From positions 190,934-254,933 of the forward strand of contig MFIU01000001.1 of NCBI GenBank assembly GCA_001778985.1: 64,000 nt of DNA, in the 5' to 3' direction. The stretch's first letter is position 1. The number at the start of each line of letters is the position of its first letter. Under the pieces are notes generated by a model. That model was not told the origin of the DNA. It did not search any database and was given only the letters and a program-made list of their open reading frames with translations. Positions 20,794 to 47,507 of this stretch are shown in pieces. A program made the position numbers and the translations under genes. The DNA is from Candidatus Giovannonibacteria bacterium RIFOXYD1_FULL_48_21 (GTDB taxonomy: Bacteria; Patescibacteriota; Minisyncoccia; JACPKW01; UBA11713).

Positions 20794-22422
20794 TTGGTTT
20801 TAAATTTGATGGCGAAAAAATTTTGGCCTCCCGCGAGGGCGCGGTTGTATAATTACACTATGGCCTACCCCTATCTCCACTTGGCGCATGCGCCGGAATT
20901 GAAAGGAAAAGACTGGATAATTTTTAGGTTTCTAGAAATTTTTCCCGGAGGAATCGCGTGGCTGACGCTTGTGGGGATGGTTTTAGTTTCGTGGCTCGCT
21001 CCGGTCGCGGGGGCGATTTTTATAATTCTTTTTGATTTATATTGGCTTATAAAAACCATCTATCTTTCAATTCATCTTCGCGGAAATTGGAAGAGATTGC
21101 GGCATAATTTAAAGATTGATTGGAAAGAGCGCGTCCAAAAATTATGCTGGGAGCACGTCTGGCAGGTGGTCATTCTGCCCTTTTATAAAGAGTCTTATGA
21201 AGTGATAGAAAGTTCATTCCAAGCTCTCGTTAAATCAGATTGGCCCAAAGAGCGGATGATTTTAGTTCTGGCCAGGGAAGAGAAAGGAGGCGAGGGAACG
21301 CGCGAGACAATTTGGAAAATCCGCGAAAAATACAAAAATCAGTTTCCGCATTTTCTGGAAACCAAACATCCCGTAAACCTCGAAGGCGAGATTCCCGGCA
21401 AAGGCTCCAATGCCGCTTGGGCCGGACGCGAAGTAAAAAAATATATTGATAAACTCAATGTTCCTTACGGCGATATTCTTGTTTCGTCCCTGGATATCGA
21501 CACCCAGGTTCCTGAGCAATATTTTTTGGTCTTGGCCTATCATTTTCTGACGGTGGAAAATCCGCATCGGACCGCTTACCAGCCGGTTCCGGTCTACAAC
21601 AATAATATTTGGGAAGCGCCATCTTTCTCGCGCGTGGTCGCGAACTCCGGAACTTTCTGGCAAATGATGCAGCAGGAGCGTCCGGAAAGGCTGGCAACTT
21701 TCTCTTCGCACTCCATGAGTTTTAAGGCGCTCGTCGAGCTCGATTTTTGGCAGAGAAACATGGTTTCCGAAGATTCAAGAATTTTCTGGCAGGGATTTCT
21801 CTATTATAAAGGCGATTACAAATCTCAACCTATCGCTTATCCGGTCTGGATGGACGCGCCCATTGGCAGAAATCTCTGGGAAACCGCGCAAAGTGTCTAT
21901 AAACAGCAGAGGCGCTGGGCCTGGGGCGTGGAGAATTTTCCGTACACTCTTTTCGGATTTTTGAAAATTCCTGAAATTCCCTTGCGAAAAAAACTTTATT
22001 TCACCCTGATTATGTTTGAGGGGCTTTGGTCTTGGTCCACGAACGCGATTTTGATGTTTTTCTTGGGCTGGCTTCCTTTGATTCTTGGGGGCGAAGCTTT
22101 TAACTCAACTATTCTCTCCTACAATCTGCCGCGCGCGACGAGACTGATTATGACCTTAGCCATGGTCGGGATTATAACTTCCATCGTAATTTCGACTTCG
22201 CTTCTGCCGCCCCGTCCGGAGAAGACGCCTCGCCGAAAATATCTTTACATGATTTTGCAGTGGCTTTTGATGCCCGTGACTCTAATTTTCTTCGGCGCGA
22301 TTCCGGCGCTCGACGCCCAAACCCGCTTAATGCTCGGCAAGTACATGGGTTTCTGGGTGACGCCTAAATATAGAAAGACTCCGGAGTTTATTCGAAATGA
22401 AGCGATGCGGACTGCGCGCTGA
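20794..22422 (+). CDS. Membrane-embedded processive family-2 glycosyltransferase (cellulose/chitin-synthase-like)
   Basis: D..D (SLDIDTQ), ED (SEDSRIFWQ) and QQRRW motifs, flanked by multiple TM segments. Confidence 0.55.
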   Translation: MVLNLMAKKFWPPARARLYNYTMAYPYLHLAHAPELKGKDWIIFRFLEIFPGGIAWLTLVGMVLVSWLAPVAGAIFIILFDLYWLIKTIYLSIHLRGNWKRLRHNLKIDWKERVQKLCWEHVWQVVILPFYKESYEVIESSFQALVKSDWPKERMILVLAREEKGGEGTRETIWKIREKYKNQFPHFLETKHPVNLEGEIPGKGSNAAWAGREVKKYIDKLNVPYGDILVSSLDIDTQVPEQYFLVLAYHFLTVENPHRTAYQPVPVYNNNIWEAPSFSRVVANSGTFWQMMQQERPERLATFSSHSMSFKALVELDFWQRNMVSEDSRIFWQGFLYYKGDYKSQPIAYPVWMDAPIGRNLWETAQSVYKQQRRWAWGVENFPYTLFGFLKIPEIPLRKKLYFTLIMFEGLWSWSTNAILMFFLGWLPLILGGEAFNSTILSYNLPRATRLIMTLAMVGIITSIVISTSLLPPRPEKTPRRKYLYMILQWLLMPVTLIFFGAIPALDAQTRLMLGKYMGFWVTPKYRKTPEFIRNEAMRTAR

Positions 22423-24535
22423 CGCGCCGTGCCAACTCGGGATATTTTTGAATCGAATTCGCTTCAATTATTTTCCTGGCTTCTTCTCTGGCGGCTTCCA
22501 CCATTTTGATATTTTTTAAAGCTTCCATGCCGACGTCAGAGATGCCCCATTGTTTTTGGCCGGTTAGTTCGCCTGGGCCGCGAAGCTCTAGGTCATATTC
22601 CGCAAGCTCGAATCCGGACTTGGCTTCCAAAAGCGCTTGAAGCCGCGCCTTTGTTTTTTGCGAATTTGATTCCGTGAACAAGAAGCAATAGGGCTGATGT
22701 TCCGAGCGCATCACGCGTCCCCGAAGCTGGTGCAGTTGCGCGAGACCGAAGCGTTCGGCGCCTTCAATCAAAATAATTGTTGCGTTCGGGACATCCACGC
22801 CGACCTCGATGACGGAAGTCGCCACCAAAAGCTGGATTTTTCCCTCCCGAAATTCTTTCATTATTTTTTCTTTTTCTTTGGGTTTGAGCTTTCCGTGGAG
22901 CATCGCGACCTTAAACTCCGGGAAAATATTTTCCGAAAGAGTTTTATATTCTTTTTTTACGGCGCGCATCTCTGGAAGTCCGACTTCCCGGAGAAGTCGG
23001 ACTTCCTCGGATTCAATCCGCGGGCAGAGAACGTAGGCCTGGCGCCCGAATGAAATTTTTTTCCGGACGTGCTCGTAGGCATGTTTTCGTTTCTCGGGGG
23101 CGATAATCTCGGTAATTATTTTTTTTCTTCCAGCTGGCATCTCGTCCAAAAGCGTTAAATCCAAATCTCCGTAAATTGTAAGCGCCAAAGTTCGAGGGAT
23201 TGGGGTCGCAGTCATGGACAAAAGATGGGGAATCTGCCCGCCGGCAGGCAGGTTTTCTTCGTGACCTTTTTGCGTCAATTTCAAGCGCTGATTTATGCCA
23301 AAGCGATGCTGTTCGTCCACGATCACCAGCGCCAGTTTTTTGAATTTTATTTTTTCCTGAATCAAAGAATGGGTGCCGATTAAAATTTGAATCTCACCCG
23401 ATGCTAACCATTTCAAGAGGGGAGCGCGCGCAATGTGAGTCGGTTTCCCGGCGAAAGCTTTGGAGGGATATTTTAAAAATTCTGAAGAGGTAGCCAAGCC
23501 TATTTTTATATTCAACTGCTTAAAACGGCGGATGAATTCTTCAAAATGCTGGCGCGCCAAAACCTCGGTCGGCGCCATGTAGGCCACCTGAAAATTGTTC
23601 TGGACGGCGGCAAAACTCGCCACGGCCGCGACCGCGGTTTTTCCGGAACCGACATCTCCTTCCAAGAGTCTGGACATCGGCTTCGCTCGGCCCAGATCTT
23701 CGAGAATATGTTCGCTGGCTCGTTTTTGGGCGCCGGTCAGTTCGAAAGGGAAGGCTTTTACGAAATCTTTAATTTTTTCCGGCTCAATGGCTATCTGATA
23801 CGAAGGATGTTCATCGCGTTTTTTGCGCCAGGCTTGCCGGATTAGCTGGATTATGAAAATTTCTTCAAAGGCGAAGCGCTTTCTGGCGGCCTCGGCCCAT
23901 TTCAAATTCCGCGGGAAGTGAATTTCTTTTATGGCCGATTTTAAGGAGGGGAGATTGTATTTTTTTAAAATTTCTTCCGGAATGGAGTCTTTTAGGGAAG
24001 TCGGACTTCCACTTGGAAGTCCGACTTCCAAGTGGTCCAAAATTCGTTTTATTGCAAAGCGGAGCCAGCGCGAAGTGAGGCCCCGCGTCTCCGGGTAAAT
24101 TGGTACAAGTATTCCAGACTCATTCGCGGTTATCTCTCCTGCTTCAAACACGGGATTCATCATGGAAAGCCCGTTTTTATCTCGTTTTATGGTTCCAGTG
24201 AAAGTGTAGTCGGTATTGGGTTTTAAGATATTAACCATATATGGCTGGTTGAACCAGACAATTTTTAAAGAGCCGGTGCCGTCAGAAATCAAAGTCTGGG
24301 CAAGGCTGATTTTTTTGCGAAAGGTTTTTTTGGCTTCGGTTTTAATCACACGGCCGTGCACCGAGGCCCGTTCGCCCGCGACTAAATCCGCGACAGCTTT
24401 TCTGCCGGCAAACCCTTCGTATCTTACGGGAAAATGCCACAATAAATCACGGACTATTTGGAGTCCGAACTTTTTTAAAATTAGAATTTGTCTCTCGGTC
24501 AGGCGAAAATAATTCGAGAGCGGGGAGTCGAGCAT
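22388..24535 (-). CDS. recG: ATP-dependent DNA helicase RecG
   Basis: Wedge/OB N-terminus, helicase motifs I (GDVGSGKT), II (DEQH) and VI (QLRGRV); contains two in-frame REP-like doublets. Confidence 0.9.
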   Translation of the reverse strand: MLDSPLSNYFRLTERQILILKKFGLQIVRDLLWHFPVRYEGFAGRKAVADLVAGERASVHGRVIKTEAKKTFRKKISLAQTLISDGTGSLKIVWFNQPYMVNILKPNTDYTFTGTIKRDKNGLSMMNPVFEAGEITANESGILVPIYPETRGLTSRWLRFAIKRILDHLEVGLPSGSPTSLKDSIPEEILKKYNLPSLKSAIKEIHFPRNLKWAEAARKRFAFEEIFIIQLIRQAWRKKRDEHPSYQIAIEPEKIKDFVKAFPFELTGAQKRASEHILEDLGRAKPMSRLLEGDVGSGKTAVAAVASFAAVQNNFQVAYMAPTEVLARQHFEEFIRRFKQLNIKIGLATSSEFLKYPSKAFAGKPTHIARAPLLKWLASGEIQILIGTHSLIQEKIKFKKLALVIVDEQHRFGINQRLKLTQKGHEENLPAGGQIPHLLSMTATPIPRTLALTIYGDLDLTLLDEMPAGRKKIITEIIAPEKRKHAYEHVRKKISFGRQAYVLCPRIESEEVRLLREVGLPEMRAVKKEYKTLSENIFPEFKVAMLHGKLKPKEKEKIMKEFREGKIQLLVATSVIEVGVDVPNATIILIEGAERFGLAQLHQLRGRVMRSEHQPYCFLFTESNSQKTKARLQALLEAKSGFELAEYDLELRGPGELTGQKQWGISDVGMEALKNIKMVEAAREEARKIIEANSIQKYPELARRVSAQSASLHFE
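22974..23006. repeat. REP-like palindrome doublet (GGAAGTCCGACTTCC ..7nt.. GAAGTCGGACTTCC) in frame inside recG; encodes EEVRLLREVGLPE
   Basis: Read directly; the same 13-15-nt palindrome recurs at 23996, 40198, 40926 and 40988. Confidence 0.8.
23996..24035. repeat. REP-like palindrome doublet (GGAAGTCGGACTTCC + 27-nt perfect palindrome CCACTTGGAAGTCCGACTTCCAAGTGG) in frame inside recG; encodes LEVGLPSGSPTS
   Basis: Read directly. Confidence 0.8.
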
Positions 24536-24556
24536 GAGATTATTTTACACTTTTGC

Positions 24557-24627
24557 GCCCTCGAGAGGAATTGAACCTCTATCACAAGCTCCGCAAGCTT
24601 GCATTCTGTCCGTTGAACTACGAGGGC
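24557..24627 (-). tRNA. tRNA-Arg with anticodon GCG (unusual), no encoded CCA
   Basis: Cloverleaf: acceptor GCCCTCG/CGAGGGC, anticodon stem CAAGC/GCTTG, loop TTGCGGA, T-arm AGAGG-TTCAATT-CCTCT; G10-U25 in the D stem. Confidence 0.6.
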
Positions 24628-24902
24628 AAATTAATAAGTTTTGGAAGTGCGCGTTTGATGTAATTTATATCAATAATTTTTCGATTTTCATCCATTTCAT
24701 AGAAAATTCGATAAGCTCCTACCCGACGGCGCCACTCGTTTTCTTTATCTTTCATCTTGGCGATATCTCCAGAATAAGGATTTACGGCCAGTTCTTGAAA
24801 AGCAAGGAAAACCCGTTCCGCGTCTTTTTTCGGAATCTTTCTGAGGAATTTTCTGGAAGACTTACTTATTATTAATTTCCAACTCACGCTGCAGTTCCTC
24901 AA
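24618..24902 (-). CDS. relE: RelE/ParE family type II toxin
   Basis: C-terminal R..VG.YRI.Y..D..N....I..I..R pattern typical of RelE/ParE; the stop TAG lies inside the tRNA-Arg acceptor stem; start is probably the internal GTG/ATG. Confidence 0.65.
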   Translation of the reverse strand: MRNCSVSWKLIISKSSRKFLRKIPKKDAERVFLAFQELAVNPYSGDIAKMKDKENEWRRRVGAYRIFYEMDENRKIIDINYIKRALPKLINLPS

Positions 24903-28769: not shown

Positions 28770-28885
28770 GCTCGCCCGCTACCTGCCCGTCCGGCAGGCG
28801 GGCGCGGGCTCGCCAGCCCTGCCTGCGGCAGGCAGGCGTTTTTCGGGGAAATTTTCCGCCATAGGCGGATCTGCCTATGGCATGA
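28770..28885 (+). terminator. Cluster of GC-rich hairpins after tRNA-Ser(GCU): CCTGCC-CGTCC-GGCAGG; CCTGCCTGC-GGCAGGCAGG followed by TTTTT (likely intrinsic terminator); GCCATAGGC-GGATCT-GCCTATGGC
   Basis: Read directly; a T-run follows the second hairpin. Confidence 0.55.
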
Positions 28886-32890: not shown

Positions 32891-33439
32891 ATGGCAGAAC
32901 CATCCTTTATACCAAAAAGTCTTCCCCAACGCCTCGCCCAAGCGCGGGAACCCTTGGGAACTTTTCTGTTTTTGGGAGTTTTGGTTTTCGTGATTTCGCT
33001 TTTGGCGCTCGGCGGCTTATTTTTCTACGAGCGCTTGCTTTCCAGCCAGATTACGGACCTCGTAAAATCGCTGGAGCGTCTGAAGGCCGACTTTGACGCG
33101 GACTCCATAAACGAACTCGCCCGCGTTTCAGAGTCAATCCAGACCGCCCAAGAGGTCCTGTTCAGTCACCGCCGCGTTTCCAACGTGTTCATGCTTCTGG
33201 AGTCAAGCACCCTGCCGGAGGTCAGGTTTTCAAAGTTTTCTTTCGACGCGGCTTCCAACCAGCTTACCCTCGCGGCCGAAGCCAAAAGTTACACGGCCCT
33301 CGCCCACCAGACCGAAATTTTTAAGAAATCCTCCGGCGTATCAAAAACATCTTTGTCGAGTTTTTCCCTGACTCCTGCCGGAGGCGTTGATTATGAGGTC
33401 GACCTTACTTTTAATCCCGCTTTGGTTCTCGCACGCTGA
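32891..33439 (+). CDS. pilN: PilN-like pilus assembly protein
   Basis: N-terminal TM plus coiled periplasmic region; positioned after pilM. Confidence 0.6.
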   Translation: MAEPSFIPKSLPQRLAQAREPLGTFLFLGVLVFVISLLALGGLFFYERLLSSQITDLVKSLERLKADFDADSINELARVSESIQTAQEVLFSHRRVSNVFMLLESSTLPEVRFSKFSFDAASNQLTLAAEAKSYTALAHQTEIFKKSSGVSKTSLSSFSLTPAGGVDYEVDLTFNPALVLAR

Positions 33440-33987
33440 TGGGACGGAATTTTTTAGGCCTGGTTCTGATTGTGGCGGCGGCCGGGGTGAGCGCTTTCTG
33501 GGCTTATCCCTTATGGCTGGAGGTAGGCGAATTGGGCGGGACGAAAGAGGAGCTGACTCGAACCGTGAACCAAGTTAAAGACTTGGCGCGTCGGCGGGAC
33601 GATCTTTTGGCCAGTTACAATTCCATTCCCCGCCAGGATTTGGAAAGTTTGGAAGAATTTTTTCCGAGCAGTCCGGAGGCCGGACTGCTCTTGGTTAACC
33701 TCGAGAGTCTCGCCCGGGGCTCGGGGCTTTTGCTCAAAACCATCGCCGTGAGCGAAGGCGGAGAGCTTCAAGTTCAGCCGGCGGACCAGCCCCAGGAGAA
33801 AGTTTCGAGCTTGCCTTTTCAGATTTCAGTTTCCGGTTCGTACGCCGCTTTTCGTTCTTTTCTGGCCGCCTTGGAGTCTTCGCGCCGCCTTATTGAGCTC
33901 GACCAAATTTCCTTCGACTCCGGCAAGGCCGGAACAAAAGAGTCTTACGAGTTTACGATTCAGGCTCACACTTATTGGAGAAAATAA
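33439..33987 (+). CDS. pilO: PilO-like pilus assembly protein
   Basis: N-terminal TM, coiled-coil, C-terminal alpha/beta domain; operon position. Confidence 0.55.
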   Translation: MGRNFLGLVLIVAAAGVSAFWAYPLWLEVGELGGTKEELTRTVNQVKDLARRRDDLLASYNSIPRQDLESLEEFFPSSPEAGLLLVNLESLARGSGLLLKTIAVSEGGELQVQPADQPQEKVSSLPFQISVSGSYAAFRSFLAALESSRRLIELDQISFDSGKAGTKESYEFTIQAHTYWRK

Positions 33988-38697: not shown

Positions 38698-38715
38698 TTG
38701 TTTTATAATTGAATT

Positions 38716-39168
38716 ATGAAAAAAGCCGGTTTTACTTTAATTGAACTTCTGGTGGTTATCGCGATTATAGGCATTCTGGCCTCCGTGGTTTTAGCTTCGC
38801 TGAATACGGCTAGGAAAAAAGGCAACGATGCCAAAGTCAAAGCCCAGCTCTCGGGCCTGCGGGTCGCGGCGGAGCTCTATTGGGATTCCGCAGGCAATTA
38901 CGGAATCACAACTAATGCCTGCAGTGGCGGTGTTGGAAATATGTTTGCCGATACTGCGTCGAACATGGCAACATATGTCGATGGCGCCAACTACCCTGCT
39001 GGGACCACGATAACTTGCCGCGCCATAGCTGCTCCAGCTTCCTACGCGGTTTCCGCTAATTTAAGCGATGCCAACGCGGCCGCGGTTGACAACTGGTGCG
39101 TGGACTCGACCGGCGTTTCCAAAGCTATCGCTAGTTACCTGGCAAGCGGAGACACCACCTGCAACTAA
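38716..39168 (+). CDS. Type IV pilin (prepilin-type N-terminal cleavage/methylation domain), paralog 1
   Basis: GFTLIELLVVIAIIGILA class III signal; C-terminal Cys pair. Confidence 0.9.
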   Translation: MKKAGFTLIELLVVIAIIGILASVVLASLNTARKKGNDAKVKAQLSGLRVAAELYWDSAGNYGITTNACSGGVGNMFADTASNMATYVDGANYPAGTTITCRAIAAPASYAVSANLSDANAAAVDNWCVDSTGVSKAIASYLASGDTTCN

Positions 39169-39266
39169 ACTCTTATCCACACTGAAAAATTATTCCGTCC
39201 GGCAACGGGGTATAATAATAGTATTAGAAAAAGAAGGTCGTTTTACTCTTAGACATTAATGTTTTT

Positions 39267-39725
39267 ATGAATATTTTTAGGAAGAAAGCAGGTTTTACCC
39301 TTATTGAACTTCTGGTGGTTATCGCGATTATTGGCATTCTGGCCTCCGTGGTTTTAGCTTCGCTGAATACGGCCCGAAAGCGCGGGAACGACGCCAAAGT
39401 CAAGGCCCAGCTCTCTGGACTTCGCGTGGCCGCGGAATTGTATTTTGATTCCAACGGCGGCTATGGCGCCACCACCGATGTTTGCAGTGTTGGAATGTTC
39501 CCAGATACCGCGTCGAACATGGCCACCTATGTTGACACGGCGAACTATCCTGCTGGGACTACAATAGACTGCCACGCAGTCACTTCCCCGTCTGCCGCCT
39601 ACGCTGTTTCAGCTACTTTGAGTGATGCTAACCCGGCTACAGCCGACGTCTGGTGCGTGGATTCAACCGGCGCCTCCAAAGCTATCGGTGATCGTCTAAC
39701 CACCGCCGGAGACGTTACCTGCTAG
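39267..39725 (+). CDS. Type IV pilin, paralog 2
   Basis: GFTLIELLVVIAIIGILA; 5' 160 nt about 90% identical to paralog 1. Confidence 0.9.
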   Translation: MNIFRKKAGFTLIELLVVIAIIGILASVVLASLNTARKRGNDAKVKAQLSGLRVAAELYFDSNGGYGATTDVCSVGMFPDTASNMATYVDTANYPAGTTIDCHAVTSPSAAYAVSATLSDANPATADVWCVDSTGASKAIGDRLTTAGDVTC

Positions 39726-40195
39726 TGAGAAAGGGTTTTACTTTAATTGAACTCCTGGTGGTAATTGCCGTTATTGGAATTATTGCCGCCATTATAGTTG
39801 TCGCGCTTGGCGGCGCCAGAAATCGCTCTCAAGACGCCAAGGTCAAGGTTCAGGTGTCCGGAGCCAAAAACGCGGCTGAAATTTATTTCAATTCCTCGGG
39901 CGGCTACGGCGCCGCCAATGTTTCCGTCGTTTCGGGAGGAGCATCCTGCGCCGGCGCTATGTTCACGGACGCAAATTCCAGCATGGCCGCGTACGCTGAC
40001 TCTGATAATTATCCCGGAGGAGCCGGGTTGGTCTGCGTTCAGAATTCCAGCGCTTTTGCCTTCGCGGCCTCTCTTTCAATTTCCGGCGAGTACTGGTGCG
40101 CGGACTCCAGCGGCAACCCAGGCAAAATCACGATTTCTAACCCCGCGAGCGTAGTCACCTCTGATGACACCTGCTCCGAACTCGACGCCAGATGA
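39725..40195 (+). CDS. Type IV pilin, paralog 3
   Basis: GFTLIELLVVIAVIGIIA prepilin signal. Confidence 0.9.
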   Translation: MRKGFTLIELLVVIAVIGIIAAIIVVALGGARNRSQDAKVKVQVSGAKNAAEIYFNSSGGYGAANVSVVSGGASCAGAMFTDANSSMAAYADSDNYPGGAGLVCVQNSSAFAFAASLSISGEYWCADSSGNPGKITISNPASVVTSDDTCSELDAR

Positions 40196-40197
40196 GT

Positions 40198-40218
40198 TAT
40201 CGAAGTCCGACTTCGATA
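40198..40218. repeat. REP-like 21-nt perfect palindrome TATCGAAGTCCGACTTCGATA between the convergent pilin and RAYT genes
   Basis: Read directly. Confidence 0.85.
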
Positions 40219-40219
40219 G

Positions 40220-40909
40220 TTATTCTATTATCACCTCTTTGTCCATCTCCTTATAATTTTCTGAACGGAGCCATTCGGTAATATTGGCTTGATATTGTTT
40301 GGGGCCTCCAAAAGATTCATCAAGCAGACCCATATCCAATAATTCTGGGAAATTCATTTTTCCAAGGTAATCCTGGTGACTTGACCATCGGTATGATGCT
40401 AAAAAGTCTAAAGCTTTTTCTGGATTTTTAATGCCGTTTATTTTCCACTCTGGCTCAATCGCCTCGAGCGGGTTTAGATGAATATAGTAGGGGAGATAAA
40501 TAAAATGTCGCTCATTTTTTAATCTCGCGGCTTTATATTTTCCTTGAAAAAGCGGCCCCACCCTCTGATACTTTTTATTAAAATAATTTGTGTATCCGGC
40601 CCCAACCTTTCTCATAAACTCCGTGATTCCATTTCCTGCTATCTGTTCAAGCAGCAAGTGGTAGTGATTTGACATCAGCGCAAACGCCAACACCCTAACT
40701 AATTTCTTACGCGGATATTGAAGTCGGATTTCGATAGATTTTATATCGAAAAAATAGCCTATATTGGTGGCTGAGCTTGAATCATTGAAAAGAGTTAAGC
40801 TATAAACAAATCTTAAGCGGTCACGATCGTTAAGAAAAATGTTCCTTTTTTCCACACCACGATTATAAACGTGATAAATTTTACCGGTGGCAGGTTTTTC
40901 TCTTGGCAT
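40220..40909 (-). mobile_element. REP-associated tyrosine transposase (RAYT / IS200-like HUH Y1 transposase), 229 aa
   Basis: HUH motif (HYHLLLEQ), IHLNPL and RWSSHQDY regions resembling E. coli RayT/YafM; flanked by REP-like palindromes. Confidence 0.7.
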
Positions 40910-40925
40910 ATCTTTAATTCTATTC

Positions 40926-40943
40926 TATCGAAGTCGGACTTCC
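40926..40943. repeat. REP-like half-palindrome TATCGAAGTCGGACTTCC upstream of the RAYT gene
   Basis: Read directly. Confidence 0.8.
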
Positions 40944-40980
40944 AAATGCTTGTTGGGACTTTTCTTTATAGAATAAATAA

Positions 40981-41751
40981 GTGGATTCTATCGAAATCGG
41001 ACTTCTAGTTTTCTTTTTTGGGCTTGCCGTCGGTAGTTTTCTTAACGTAATAATTTTTCGGCATAATACTGGCGAGAAAGTTATTGCCGGACGTTCTAGA
41101 TGTTTCGCCTGCGGGAAGACGCTTCGTTGGCATGAGCTTATTCCGGTTTTAAGTTTTTGCATCCAGAAGGGACGTTGCCGGGACTGCCGCAGTAAAATTT
41201 CCTGGCAGTACCCGGCCGTGGAAATTCTGACTGGACTTCTCTTTTTGTTTTTTTATCTTAAGTGGCGTATAGCGTATAGCCTGCCTGCCGGCGAGGCAGG
41301 CGCCGGGCAGGATTTGATAATTCTACTCTGGTGGTTTTCGATTGCGGCGCTTTTGGTCCTGCTCACCGTCTATGACCTCAAGCATAAAATTCTTCCGGAT
41401 AGATTCAATTACGCCTTTCTAGCTTTAAGCTTTTTTAATATCTTTAATGATTTCGCCGCCCTAACTTTCCTTTTAAGTCTTGGGCCGGCTTTTTTCCTGT
41501 TTTTGCTGTGGTTCATTTCAAGGGGCCGCTGGATGGGTTTGGGCGACGCCAAGCTTATGGCGGCGGGCGGCATTTTTTTGGGTCACATTCAAAGTTTGGT
41601 TGCTCTGGTCTTGAGTTTCTGGATTGGGGCGGCCGTTGGGATTTTCTTGCTTTTCCTGAACCCGAATATTAAACTTAAAAGTGAGATTCCTTTCGGGCCG
41701 TTTCTCGCGCTCGGAATAATCTTGGCTTTTTTCTTTTCTCCCTATGGCTAA
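40981..41751 (+). CDS. pilD: Prepilin peptidase (type IV leader peptidase / N-methyltransferase, A24 family)
   Basis: GSFLNV, zinc-binding CxxC...CxxC, catalytic Asp regions (GLGDAKLMAAGG); start uncertain (GTG at 40981). Confidence 0.85.
   Translation: MDSIEIGLLVFFFGLAVGSFLNVIIFRHNTGEKVIAGRSRCFACGKTLRWHELIPVLSFCIQKGRCRDCRSKISWQYPAVEILTGLLFLFFYLKWRIAYSLPAGEAGAGQDLIILLWWFSIAALLVLLTVYDLKHKILPDRFNYAFLALSFFNIFNDFAALTFLLSLGPAFFLFLLWFISRGRWMGLGDAKLMAAGGIFLGHIQSLVALVLSFWIGAAVGIFLLFLNPNIKLKSEIPFGPFLALGIILAFFFSPYG
40988..41008. repeat. Degenerate REP-like palindrome CTATCGAAATCGGACTTCTAG; encodes the first codons (SIEIGLL) of pilD
   Basis: Read directly. Confidence 0.7.
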
Positions 41752-42133: not shown

Positions 42134-42693
42134 TGCGCGGGTTCACCTTACTCGAACTTATAATCACCCTCGCCATTTTCACGATTGTGGCCGGCATTTT
42201 ATTGGCCGATTATCCGCGTTTCGCCGCCCGGATCAACCTCCGCCGCTCCGCCCAGGAGATTGCGCTCTCGATCCGCGAGGCTCAATTCTCGGCTTTCGCG
42301 GTGAGGGGATTTCAGAGCGGCGGGCAGACGATTTTCAAATCCTGGGGGATTAATTTCAACAAAAGCGTTTCGGACAAAGAATATACTTTGTTCGTGGATG
42401 CCAATGGGGATTTTGAGTATGACCCGCCGCCGGCCGCGCCGAACGAACTTGTCAAAAAATTTCAAGTTGCCGGAACTTCCAAAATCGTAAGCCTTTGCGC
42501 CGGGCTTAAAACCGCGATCCCGGACACCTGCAGTCTCAACCGGCTCGATATAATTTATCAGCGCCCCAACCCGGATACCATCCTGAAAGGCAACGGCAGC
42601 GTGTATTCGGATTTGGAGATAATTATTCGGTCCCCGGACGGGCTCCAGAGGACCATCGTGGTTTGGTCAACCGGCCAGATATCCGTAGAGTGA
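42133..42693 (+). CDS. Minor pilin / pseudopilin (GspH/FimT-like)
   Basis: GFTLLELIITLAIFTIVAG prepilin N-terminus. Confidence 0.75.
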   Translation: MRGFTLLELIITLAIFTIVAGILLADYPRFAARINLRRSAQEIALSIREAQFSAFAVRGFQSGGQTIFKSWGINFNKSVSDKEYTLFVDANGDFEYDPPPAAPNELVKKFQVAGTSKIVSLCAGLKTAIPDTCSLNRLDIIYQRPNPDTILKGNGSVYSDLEIIIRSPDGLQRTIVVWSTGQISVE

Positions 42694-42695
42694 TT

Positions 42696-43187
42696 ATGAA
42701 GGGTTTTTCTCTTCTGGAAACAATTGTCGCCATCTCGATACTGACGCTCGCCCTTTTGGGGCCGCTGGCGCTGGCCGCTTTCGCGCTCCGCTCCGCCAGC
42801 TTGTCTGAAAATCAAGTCATCGCTTTTAATTTGGCGGAAGAGGGGATGGAGTTTGTCATAAATAAAAGGGATTCCAACATTTTCGCTGGCGCCGGAAACT
42901 GGCTCGAGGGCCTGACCAACTGCCAGTCTGCCAACGGCTGTTTTGTTGATGTTACCAATAATTCAGTGCAGAGATGTTCTGCGAATTGCCCTTTTCTGAA
43001 ACGCAATTCATCTTCCGGGTTGTACAACTATGCTTCCGGTCCTGATACTATTTTCCGGAGAAGAACGGTGCTTGAAAATGTGGGCTCAAACCAGGACGAA
43101 CGCAAAGTCAAGGTGAGCGTTTCTTGGGCGGAACGCTTCGGGAACCGCTCTTTTACCTTGGAACATAATATTTTTAAGAAGAGATGA
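42696..43187 (+). CDS. Minor pilin (PilV/GspI-like); the ORF track starts earlier, at 42663
   Basis: KGFSLLETIVAISILTLALLG prepilin N-terminus. Confidence 0.7.
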   Translation: MKGFSLLETIVAISILTLALLGPLALAAFALRSASLSENQVIAFNLAEEGMEFVINKRDSNIFAGAGNWLEGLTNCQSANGCFVDVTNNSVQRCSANCPFLKRNSSSGLYNYASGPDTIFRRRTVLENVGSNQDERKVKVSVSWAERFGNRSFTLEHNIFKKR

Positions 43188-43188
43188 T

Positions 43189-43769
43189 ATGAAACGCGAA
43201 GCAGGTTTTACGTTGTTGGAAATGCTGGTATCTTTGGCGGTTTTTTCAGTCGCGCTTTTAATAATTATGGTTACTCTTTTTTCCGTCTTTAACGCCCAGC
43301 GAAAAGCCATCGCGATTCAAAACGCCCAAGACAATCTGCGTTTCGCTTTTGAACATATGACCAAGGAGATTCGGGTCGGCCGCGTTTTTCACTGCGGCAT
43401 TTCCGGCACGCTGACCCAGCCTCAAGATTGCCCCAACGGTTCAACTCCTTCTTCTTTCAGTTTTAAAAATGACGTCGGCCAGACCGTGACTTATCAAGTT
43501 ATTTCCAATCAGCTGGTAAAATCCTCCACCGCCTCCCGGCCCTGCGACAATAGTCCGCCTACGCTCGCGGACTGCCAGAAAATCACGGCGCCGGAAGTGG
43601 TGATAGTGGATCGAGTTGCTTTTTACGTTGACGGTTCGGCCGCTTTTGATGGCAAGCAGGATAGGGTAACGATTGTGCTGGAAGGCCAGGTGCGGGATCC
43701 GCGGGGGATAGGCACCGCCGAGCTTAATCTTCAGACTACGGTTTCCAAAAGAAGTTTAGTCGACCAGCC

Positions 43770-46856: not shown

Positions 46857-46881
<25 letters not shown>

Positions 46882-47507
46882 AAATCTCAAAGCATATTCA
46901 TTCGTGTTTACTGGTAGAGGACGAGAGCAAAACGATTTTGATTGACCCGGGGAATTATACTTTTGAAGAGAAGGGGCTTGATATTGGGAAATTAGAAAAG
47001 CTGGACTTTCTTTTGATAACCCATGAGCATCCCGACCACATGCACATGCCTTTGATTAAAGAAATATTGGAGAAATTTCCACAAGCCCAAATTATAAGCA
47101 ACAATTCCGTCAAAAAAATTTTAGAAGAAAGAGGGATAAACGCAACCGAAAATGTTGAACATTCAATGTTCAACATTTTGAAAGCACCGCACGAGCTTTT
47201 GCTCGGAGGCCGCACGGCGGAAAATACCTTGTTTAATATCTCGCAAAAATTAACTCATCCCGGGGACTCTCTTAAATTTGATAAGACCTGCGAGATTTTG
47301 GCGCTTCCCATTCAGGCGCCGTGGGGAAGCTTTGTCGCCTCGGTGGAAAAAGCGGCTCTTTTAAAGCCGAAAATCGTCATTCCAATTCACGACTGGCATT
47401 GGAAGGACGCCGCCCGCCGGAGAATGTACGATATGGCGAGCCAATATCTGTCAGAAAAAGACATTGATTTTCGCGGCCTCGAAACTGGCGAAGAAATATC
47501 GCTATGA
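46857..47507 (+). CDS. MBL-fold metallo-hydrolase
   Basis: HxHxDH motif (THEHPDHMH). Confidence 0.55.

Follow-up and report, generated by a model that had tools for sequence, protein, structure and literature searches.

In this work, we focus on two palindromic doublets that lie in frame inside the recG gene of Candidatus Giovannonibacteria bacterium RIFOXYD1_FULL_48_21 (Patescibacteriota, within the Candidate Phyla Radiation, CPR), and on a Y1/HUH transposase gene surrounded by the same hairpins. Both are found in one 64,000-nucleotide stretch of contig MFIU01000001.1 (positions 190,934 to 254,933; assembly GCA_001778985.1), which as a whole we call the window. The closest described systems are built on repetitive extragenic palindromes (REPs), which are normally species-specific. 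Intragenic REPs were catalogued by Di Nocera et al. (2013, PMC3733652) for GTAG- and CGTC-tagged families, and over half of them are dimers or groups. Some open reading frames (ORFs) have two REP insertions, such as the two dimers of O. terrae uvrA, and many of the hosts are genes of DNA synthesis and repair (uvrA/B/D, recBCD, polA, dnaE2) or tRNA synthetase genes. For the same authors, a position in linkers or loops could make intragenic REPs neutral. In the tnpA_REP genes of subclass 2.4, Quentin et al. (2018, PMC6006769) reported REP copies inserted in frame, and they found no REP-like sequences near the genes of subclasses 2.1 and 2.3; subclass 2.1 (TIRYT-like) is marked by a C-terminal domain resembling a helix-turn-helix (HTH) and by terminal inverted repeats of the form GGGG[AT][CG]A[CG]. 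Finally, the Rickettsia palindromic elements (RPEs) are the classic in-frame case: they measure about 100-150 bp, encode a conserved peptide per family and are restricted to Rickettsia. They are not known to have a transposase.

The window family resembles the REPs of Di Nocera et al. in that it consists of short inverted dimers, in frame inside ORFs, twice in a same gene, and in repair genes and tRNA synthetase genes. It differs from them by its core, by the lack of a GT[AG]G or CGTC foot tag, by its phyla-wide distribution and by its CPR hosts, and RecG is unmentioned in the main text of PMC3733652. With the RPEs it shares the nature of an in-frame palindromic mobile element that sits in housekeeping genes of a reduced genome and is apparently compatible with protein structure; unlike them, it is 31-40 nt long, uses all reading frames and has a candidate transposase. 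We consider that the recG doublets are mobile miniature derivatives of the hairpins of a Y1 transposon, and we would put the probability of this reading at about three in four. It is carried by hairpins tied to a transposase, by a multi-copy unit of about 0.9 kb, by dispersed inverted doublets, and by lineage-specific recG copies in disordered loops.

In detail, the doublets would be non-autonomous end-derivatives of 33-38 nt, similar to REP doublets (REPINs) or to palindrome-associated transposable elements (PATEs), and would stem from the hairpins that flank a single-strand transposon of the IS200 or REP-associated tyrosine transposase (RAYT) type. The transposase encoded at 40220-40909, or a relative elsewhere in the genome, may have mobilised them in trans as single-stranded hairpins. 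The genic copies that survive would be those with a net length change that is a multiple of three, without a stop and in a permissive surface loop. The encoded peptides would then be by-products, and the protein would play no part in keeping the arms symmetrical, which would be due to a hairpin constraint or to hairpin-templated correction.

The recG gene and its in-frame inserts

The 715-aa ORF at 22388-24535 (minus strand) is recG, and its product has the wedge and the two RecA-like helicase domains of RecG. It passes three NCBIfam RecG equivalog cut-offs (NF008168, 768.9 bits for a cut-off of 718; NF008165, 726.8 for 711; TIGR00643, 663.7 for 659.4), contains the Pfam domains RecG_wedge, DEAD, Helicase_C and RecG_dom3_C, and can be aligned over its whole length with T. 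maritima RecG (1GM5). This structure is also the best PDB match (E = 8e-49) of the AlphaFold (AF2) model, for which the predicted local distance difference test score (pLDDT) is 83. The protein is identical to OGF65509.1 and to other entries.

With at most one mismatch, the 15-mer GGAAGTCSGACTTCC has five matches in the window for a chance expectation of 0 (100 shuffles); four of them are within recG (22974, 22992, 23996 and 24015), where they form two inverted doublets. Doublet B (22974-23006, 33 nt), which reads GGAAGTCCGACTTCC-CGG-AGAAGTCGGACTTCC, has 14-nt arms and centres C..G, and it encodes EEVRLLREVGLP (aa 510-521, in a translation that includes EEVRLLREVGLPE) at the start of helicase domain 2, after the CPRIE strand. 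Doublet A (23996-24035), made of GGAAGTCGGACTTCC and ACTTGGAAGTCCGACTTCCAAGT(GG), has 16-nt arms and centres G..C; it encodes LEVGLPSGSPTS (aa 169-180) in the linker after the wedge domain. At 24009-24035 it holds the 27-nt palindrome CCACTTGGAAGTCCGACTTCCAAGTGG, whose 13-nt arms are separated by a single base. No perfect inverted repeat of the 64 kb is longer than those of the two doublets. As sense-strand RNA, they fold at -27.7 kcal/mol for B (z = -4.5) and -29.7 kcal/mol for A (z = -6.5), and neither an RNA family of Rfam nor a terminator-like tail was found at them. Sequence and coordinates of the doublets and of the 27-nt palindrome are as the original prediction had described them, and translation, profiles and fold agree with its statement that they are in frame in an otherwise canonical RecG. 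Its inventory stands for these copies but is incomplete on two counts, as it missed a third insert in recG and further hairpins around the transposase gene (40198-41005).

This third in-frame insert, ENLPAGG (aa 427-433; 23233-23253; +21 nt relative to the orthologues), sits between helicase motifs II (DEQH) and III (TATP). It carries the imperfect palindrome CTGCCCGCCGGCAGGCAG, of the family CCTGCCTRCCGGCAGGCAGG, and forms a weak hairpin (z = -0.87). This second palindrome family, translated as LPAG[GR]Q or LPAGEAG, is also found in the window in an intergenic position (28819-28835) and in frame in the ORF 40981-41751 (41281-41299), and it has 25 matches in the fetched loci, which total 1.19 Mb and are mostly from CPR bacteria. 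At the site of the third insert of the window, another RecG (P0010) reads LPAGRQ.

The segments of both doublets are absent from the nearest RecG orthologues (P0002-P0005, 81-85% identity, 692-709 aa), which agrees with the proposal that they are lineage-specific insertions of REP or REPIN type. The size that had been proposed for them, 12-13 added residues, does not hold. Indeed, a codon alignment with the DNA of the related loci L001-L004 gives a net +27 nt at site B and +21 nt at site A, that is +9 and +7 aa relative to the nearest orthologues, and neighbouring loop codons are exchanged at both sites; the net gain is lower since the inserts took the place of some of the ancestral loop. Translated signatures of the palindromes are found in only 2 of 120 RecG homologues, so that we rejected the idea of recG as a general hot spot. 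In the 90% cluster of the window RecG, every full-length member has the three inserts, including an allele about 1% diverged in protein. They are therefore fixed, as all alleles of this species-level cluster carry them. Their age is bounded only by the divergence of about 15%, at the protein level, from the nearest insert-free orthologue. The original prediction had suggested a very recent RAYT-mediated insertion: the RAYT part is strengthened by the cognate gene of RAYT fold with the same hairpins that is described below, and the very recent date is not, since all alleles of the cluster carry the inserts. A chimeric assembly, which it had wished to exclude, is very unlikely: at least 23 contigs (41 index blocks), obtained from varied ENA, JGI and NCBI samples and assemblers, encode the identical 715-aa protein.

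In the alignment to 1GM5, the third insert and site B fall largely on gaps; the helix after the wedge domain precedes site A, where the loop of 1GM5 has a similar length. All three inserts are coil in the RecG model, with a pLDDT below 50 at 425-431 and 508-520 and a mean of 56 for the block 171-180, and the only other segment below 50 is the conserved loop 653-663. According to this model, the inserts would be in surface loops, in agreement with what had been expected from their mapping onto a structure. The loop of site B was hit a second time, in a RecG that is 52% identical to that of the window (L063): its near-identical 33-nt doublet is read KSDF...KSDF, and this event can be considered independent, given the other frame and the intermediate relatives without a doublet. 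As far as recG alone is concerned, the inserts are an ordinary scar of a mobile element, which the intact gene tolerates.

Two other observations concern RecG. The recG locus L004 (2440-2560; RecG P0018, and similarly P0019) contains three tandem palindromes after the wedge domain, with feet ACTTGG...CCAAGT. Two of their cores, GACGTCGGGCGTC and GGGTGTTGGACACCC, have diverged and are still self-complementary, which suggests that the changes may be compensatory. Moreover, all CPR RecG orthologues have, relative to T. maritima, an insertion of about 13 aa in helicase domain 1 (SEFLKYPSKAFAGKPTHIARAPLLKW region, aa ~350-376, ~23410-23490), which is conserved and contains no palindrome.

A Y1/HUH transposase tied to the hairpins

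The ORF at 40220-40909 (minus strand) encodes a Y1/HUH tyrosine transposase of 229 aa with a RAYT-like fold. It is detected by Pfam Y1_Tnp (28 bits, cut-off 23), and its best NCBIfam model is REP_Tyr_transpos (NF047646), with 33.8 bits, under the cut-off of 80. The HUH motif corresponds to H82/H84 and the conserved tyrosine to Y142, in YIHLNP; in alignments of 19 and 110 sequences, H82 and H84 are conserved or invariant, and Y142 and N146 are invariant. At the sequence level, the match to solved structures is only marginal (ISDra2, E ~0.9), which is why a fold search was used. The AF2 model (pLDDT 88.9) has as its closest PDB fold 4ER8, the E. coli RAYT with a REP hairpin, followed by the TnpA proteins of IS608, ISDra2 and IS200. 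No HTH domain of Pfam was matched at E <= 0.01. The closest relatives, P0121 and P0122 (90-95% identical), are internally deleted and may be inactivated alleles on short contigs: the first lacks 24 residues, including the HuH motif, and the second lacks the N-terminus and 9 residues after LFQGK.

The hairpin core GAAGTCSGACTTC has 8 copies in the 64 kb, where none to few are expected by chance, and in the window the hairpin is confined to recG and to the transposase gene, around or inside it. A first copy, TATCGAAGTCCGACTTCGATA, lies directly 3' of the gene (40198-40218), with 10-nt arms and an RNA fold of -9.4 kcal/mol (z = -2.5). A second one, GAAGTCGGATTTC, is inside the gene with one mismatch (40720-40732) and encodes the peptide IEIRL (aa 59-63). 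On the 5' side are found TATCGAAGTCGGACTTCC (40925-40943), a match to the core, and TATCGAAATCGGACTTC (40988-41005), with one mismatch, which overlaps the start of the ORF 40981-41751. By eye, this adjoining ORF looks like a prepilin peptidase gene.

This association extends well outside the window. We fetched 80 transposase loci from metagenomes via protein alignment, which avoids circularity, and 73 of them are distinct. The core, with at most one mismatch, is found within 300 nt upstream of the transposase in 45/69 loci (65%) and within 300 nt downstream in 41/70 (59%), with copies on both sides in 39 of the 73, for a background rate of 6 matches in 146.6 kb (0.04 per kb). The hairpin family is tied specifically to the transposase family. 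Moreover, among the matches listed, relatives of the transposase adjoin doublets in four loci, including one of Ignavibacterium at 26% identity. In each of 20 loci, the upstream, internal and downstream copies have the same lineage-specific arm extension. A fixed orientation rule, in which the left end would match the internal copy and be opposite to the right end, was suggested by the window and by the locus L153; it fails in these 20 loci, and we rejected it.

The most telling case is that of two loci (L153 and L155) carried by one 585-kb contig (Ga0315285_10000001), whose sequences agree at 99.9% along a stretch of exactly 901 nt and are unrelated beyond it. This unit begins at a hairpin and ends five bases past the last of two downstream hairpins; its left flanks are AAAT in one locus and CGAG in the other. 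The compensated core variant GAAGTTSAACTTC is present in all four hairpins. Such an architecture is that of a small IS200- or REPtron-like single-strand transposon, with hairpins that co-evolve with the enzyme.

The copy that lies inside the transposase gene is also conserved. Nearly all homologues have the motif x-E-V-[G/R]-L-x at aa 58-64, upstream of HuH, and the codons used there were analysed in 63 unique genes plus the window copy. The leucine is encoded by CTT in 49/51 cases (background share 22%), the glycine by GGA in 25/25 (38%), the arginine by CGA in 9/11 (13%), the valine by GTC in 32/49 (15%) and the glutamate by GAA in 50/51 (75%), with p-values between 1e-5 and 5e-30. Codon choice is thus dictated by the palindrome, and it is the nucleotide sequence that is conserved; the alternation between glycine and arginine is that of the central G/C base of the palindrome. 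In the transposase model, these residues occupy the only low-confidence loop, and a length-variable loop comes next. The in-gene copy is a candidate self-recognition site.

How does this gene compare to the known transposases? Like the REP/REPIN-RAYT systems (E. coli TnpA_REP, 4ER8; Pseudomonas REPINs), it has REPtron-like flanking hairpins, dispersed inverted doublets and the fold of 4ER8, and it shows the Y1 HUH core (HuH, and Tyr in Y...NP) and the cognate flanking hairpins of a RAYT. Unlike them, its protein is under the NCBIfam RAYT cut-off, there is no GTAG guide and the copy numbers are apparently low; in the related genome of L153/L155, the unit of gene and hairpins is near-identical and multi-copy, which is IS-like and not domesticated. 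With the IS200/IS605 family it shares Y1_Tnp, end hairpins and, in that related genome, an intact duplicated unit of about 0.9 kb, and with PATEs it shares mini-elements with little beyond end hairpins. The differences are that TnpA_IS200 measures about 150 aa, with Y..[EN]Q and a defined tetra- or pentanucleotide target, whereas the window family measures about 230 aa, with Y...NP (YIHLNP) and FQ, a C-terminal helical extension typical of class 2 (TnpA_REP-like) and no tnpB. Subclass 2.4 resembles it by a cognate hairpin in frame in a peripheral loop of the transposase gene; however, there the insertion is between HuH and Tyr and has GT[AG]G feet, and here it is upstream of HuH (aa 58-64). 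By comparison with the published table only, the motifs of the window family (NH[YF]H, FQ, Y[IV]HLNP, about 230 aa) appear to resemble those of subclass 2.1.

Doublets inside and outside genes

To describe the dispersed copies, we scanned one genome per species for two cores placed 0-30 nt apart, which gave at least 117 loci; the counts of this section are among the matches listed. They belong to many Patescibacteria lineages and to Chloroflexota, Cyanobacteria, Ignavibacteriales/Bacteroidota and Omnitrophota. The 13-nt core is common to at least five phyla, which is possibly new and sets it apart from the species-specific REPs. True inverted pairs, with centres C..G or G..C, make up 92 of the 101 scorable doublets (p = 2e-18), and copies of a same genome have only the doublet in common, over 31-40 nt. 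The 38-nt element of site A recurs in L032 (FtsK of a Vogelbacteria) and in L104 (an ORF of a Paceibacterota), and one identical 31-mer is found in both Chloroflexota and Cyanobacteria.

These are inverted units with a short spacer, repeated as a unit, as in REPINs, and the short GC-rich imperfect palindrome is repeated as in canonical REPs (8 copies in the window and the doublet loci above). The flanks of the copies are variable (CTCTG, TTAGG, CTATC, ACTTG and others), and the canonical GT[AG]G foot of REPs (PMC6006769, PMC3733652) is not found. In Caldilineaceae ABC1.76 (Chloroflexota; L008/L037 and L061/L120), the doublet is at the centre of larger repeats, similar to miniature inverted-repeat transposable elements, with inverted flanks such as ACACTGTTACG...CGTAACAGTGT.

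The position relative to genes differs according to the group. A doublet was taken as intragenic when the stop-free frame around it spanned 150 codons or more and continued for 40 codons or more on either side. This is the case for 42/59 Patescibacteria doublets (71%), compared to 69% of random points in those loci, and for only 6/36 (17%) in the other four groups pooled, compared to 62-75% of random points (Fisher p = 2e-7 for Patescibacteria versus the other groups). Classical REPs are mostly intergenic; in the other phyla the family conforms to the predominantly extragenic placement of a classical REP, and in Patescibacteria it does not. An intragenic share equal to the random expectation sits oddly with the fact that most insertions should shift the frame. 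The original prediction had also presented intragenic in-frame REPs as unusual, which was overstated: they were listed by Di Nocera et al. (2013, PMC3733652), and in Patescibacteria the genic position is the norm.

Among the 20 longest host ORFs, 14 matched Pfam. They include UvrA (twice), Mfd, RecG (L063), FtsK, topoisomerase I (TopA), LeuRS and three Mur ligases, together with an aminotransferase, HsdR and a type ISP restriction enzyme, and one of the UvrA doublets falls on a gap in another UvrA. DNA metabolism accounts for 8 of the 14 annotated hosts, a proportion that is uncontrolled, as the longest ORFs were annotated first and such genes are long.

Some other features of the window can be mentioned here. 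A tRNA gene (24556-24627, minus strand; Rfam, 65.8 bits) lies directly upstream of the start codon of recG. The 94-aa ORF 24618-24902 (minus strand) adjoins recG, and its 89-aa counterpart in L203/L204 is annotated ParE_toxin (PF05016) and is preceded there by a 77-aa ORF, so that this is likely a toxin-antitoxin pair. The tandem paralogous genes 38714-40195 and 42139-43245 have the N-terminal sequence GFTLIELLVVIAIIGIL, which is similar to the prepilin signal of type IV pilins, and form the direct repeats D1-D5. Two further long perfect palindromes are found inside ORFs: GAGCAGTCCGGAGGCCGGACTGCTC, with 11-nt arms (33666-33690, in ORF 33439-33987), and the AT-rich AAAATGTTGAACATTCAATGTTCAACATTTT, with 15-nt arms (47149-47179, in ORF 46857-47507).

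Origin of the doublets and its meaning

Several points weigh against the reading of the recG doublets as mobile derivatives of transposon hairpins. Neither a target-site duplication nor a clean boundary is visible at the recG inserts, and the net gains, of +21 and +27 nt, do not equal the lengths of the elements (38 and 33 nt), which means that in each event some of the ancestral loop was replaced as well. A near-identical allele with an empty site was sought in the 90% cluster, and none was found; no modulo-3 bias of length exists among the intragenic doublets. The copy numbers per genome seem low, and the copy inside the transposase gene of the window is decayed and has no stable fold. Finally, the arm extensions of the resident transposase (ATCGAAGTC...) are not those of recG (GGAAGTC... 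and ACTTGGAAGTC...), so that the resident gene may not be the source of the doublets, which could come from another copy or an earlier resident.

One can ask whether the hairpins, whatever their origin, were co-opted and are kept in recG for a role as nucleic acid, such as translation pausing, mRNA stability or the binding of the Y1 enzyme to single-stranded DNA. We consider this unlikely, even though both recG hairpins are perfect and very stable in a RecG that is about 15% diverged from its nearest insert-free orthologue. Such a role would also fit the self-complementarity that the tandem copies of L004 have retained, the nucleotide-level conservation of the copy inside the transposase gene, which co-varies with the flanking ones, and the bias of intragenic REPs to repair genes (PMC3733652). 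But the doublets are present in only two of the 120 RecG homologues, which means that recG does not need them, and insertion sites and host genes are heterogeneous. Hairpin-templated repair can keep the symmetry without any function, and the absence of a terminator-like tail and of an Rfam family speaks in the same direction.

A local origin of the palindromes that involves no transposition, but template switching, gene conversion from other copies or the quasi-palindrome correction of a chance repeat, is less probable still. Several of the difficulties listed above speak for it, namely the lack of a target-site duplication and of clean boundaries, the partial replacement of the ancestral loop, the net gain unlike the element length and the lack of a modulo-3 bias. 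A local process, however, does not account for identical elements of 31-38 nt in unrelated genes, genera and even phyla, nor for the strong and specific tie to one transposase family, nor for the discrete 901-nt multi-copy unit bounded by hairpins.

The original prediction had also proposed a peptide-level selection for a translatable palindrome. In such a case, the palindromic DNA would be secondary and the peptides (EVGLP, GSPTS) would be selected protein features, for example flexible linkers that tune RecG. The inserts are rich in Gly, Pro and Ser and are in linkers, and the 38-nt element of site A is read in one frame (LEVGLPSGSPTS) at all three of its genic occurrences (window, L032 and L104). 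Across 102 intragenic units among the matches listed, however, the frames are used uniformly (KSDF, GS[P/R]TS and EV[G/R]L, 38/34/30, p = 0.62), and the core is stop-free in all six frames; this uniform usage leads us to reject selection for a particular peptide. In addition, L063 reads a near-identical doublet as KSDF...KSDF in the same RecG loop, the Gly or Arg of the transposase gene follows the central C/G base with codons fixed to the palindrome, and close orthologues function without the inserts. We thus regard this possibility as very improbable. As for an artefact of assembly or sequencing, that is a chimeric join or an adapter-derived palindrome, it is effectively refuted: some library artefacts can create perfect palindromes, and the core contains AAGTCGGA, which may resemble the start of some sequencing adapters, but the same 715-aa protein comes from many samples and assemblers, the reading frame is preserved and the family is present in more than 100 genomes of independent projects.

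The mobile origin of the doublets by a Y1 enzyme thus remains our preferred reading, and its type of event is already published, as intragenic in-frame REP dimers in repair genes (PMC3733652) and as the Rickettsia RPEs; the presence of a hairpin copy within the transposase gene also has a precedent (PMC6006769). What is possibly new is the phyla-wide core, the genic share at random level in Patescibacteria, and hairpins with a transposase whose motifs resemble those of a subclass (2.1) reported to lack REPs. A literature search with the palindrome sequence itself returned irrelevant primer matches only, and one on RAYT or REPIN with Patescibacteria or CPR found nothing relevant. Tentatively, we propose that the CPR family could be a 'coding-compatible' element and a general, so far unrecognised source of lineage-specific peptide insertions in conserved CPR proteins, driven by a subclass-2.1-like clade of Y1 enzymes whose gene carries its own co-varying hairpin, which might serve in autoregulation or as an alternative end.

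For recG, the gene is intact and the inserts are in loops, so annotation pipelines should not flag them as errors. In the ultra-compact genomes of CPR bacteria, a REP-like element is not kept out of coding DNA, and this offers a concrete mechanism, open to testing, by which some of the many small lineage-specific insertions of CPR proteins could arise. The family also serves as a natural map of the loops where essential enzymes (RecG, UvrA, Mfd, TopA, FtsK, LeuRS and Mur ligases) tolerate insertions, and it widens the partnership between hairpins and Y1 transposases to a protein clade and to phyla that are unreported in the published surveys we found.

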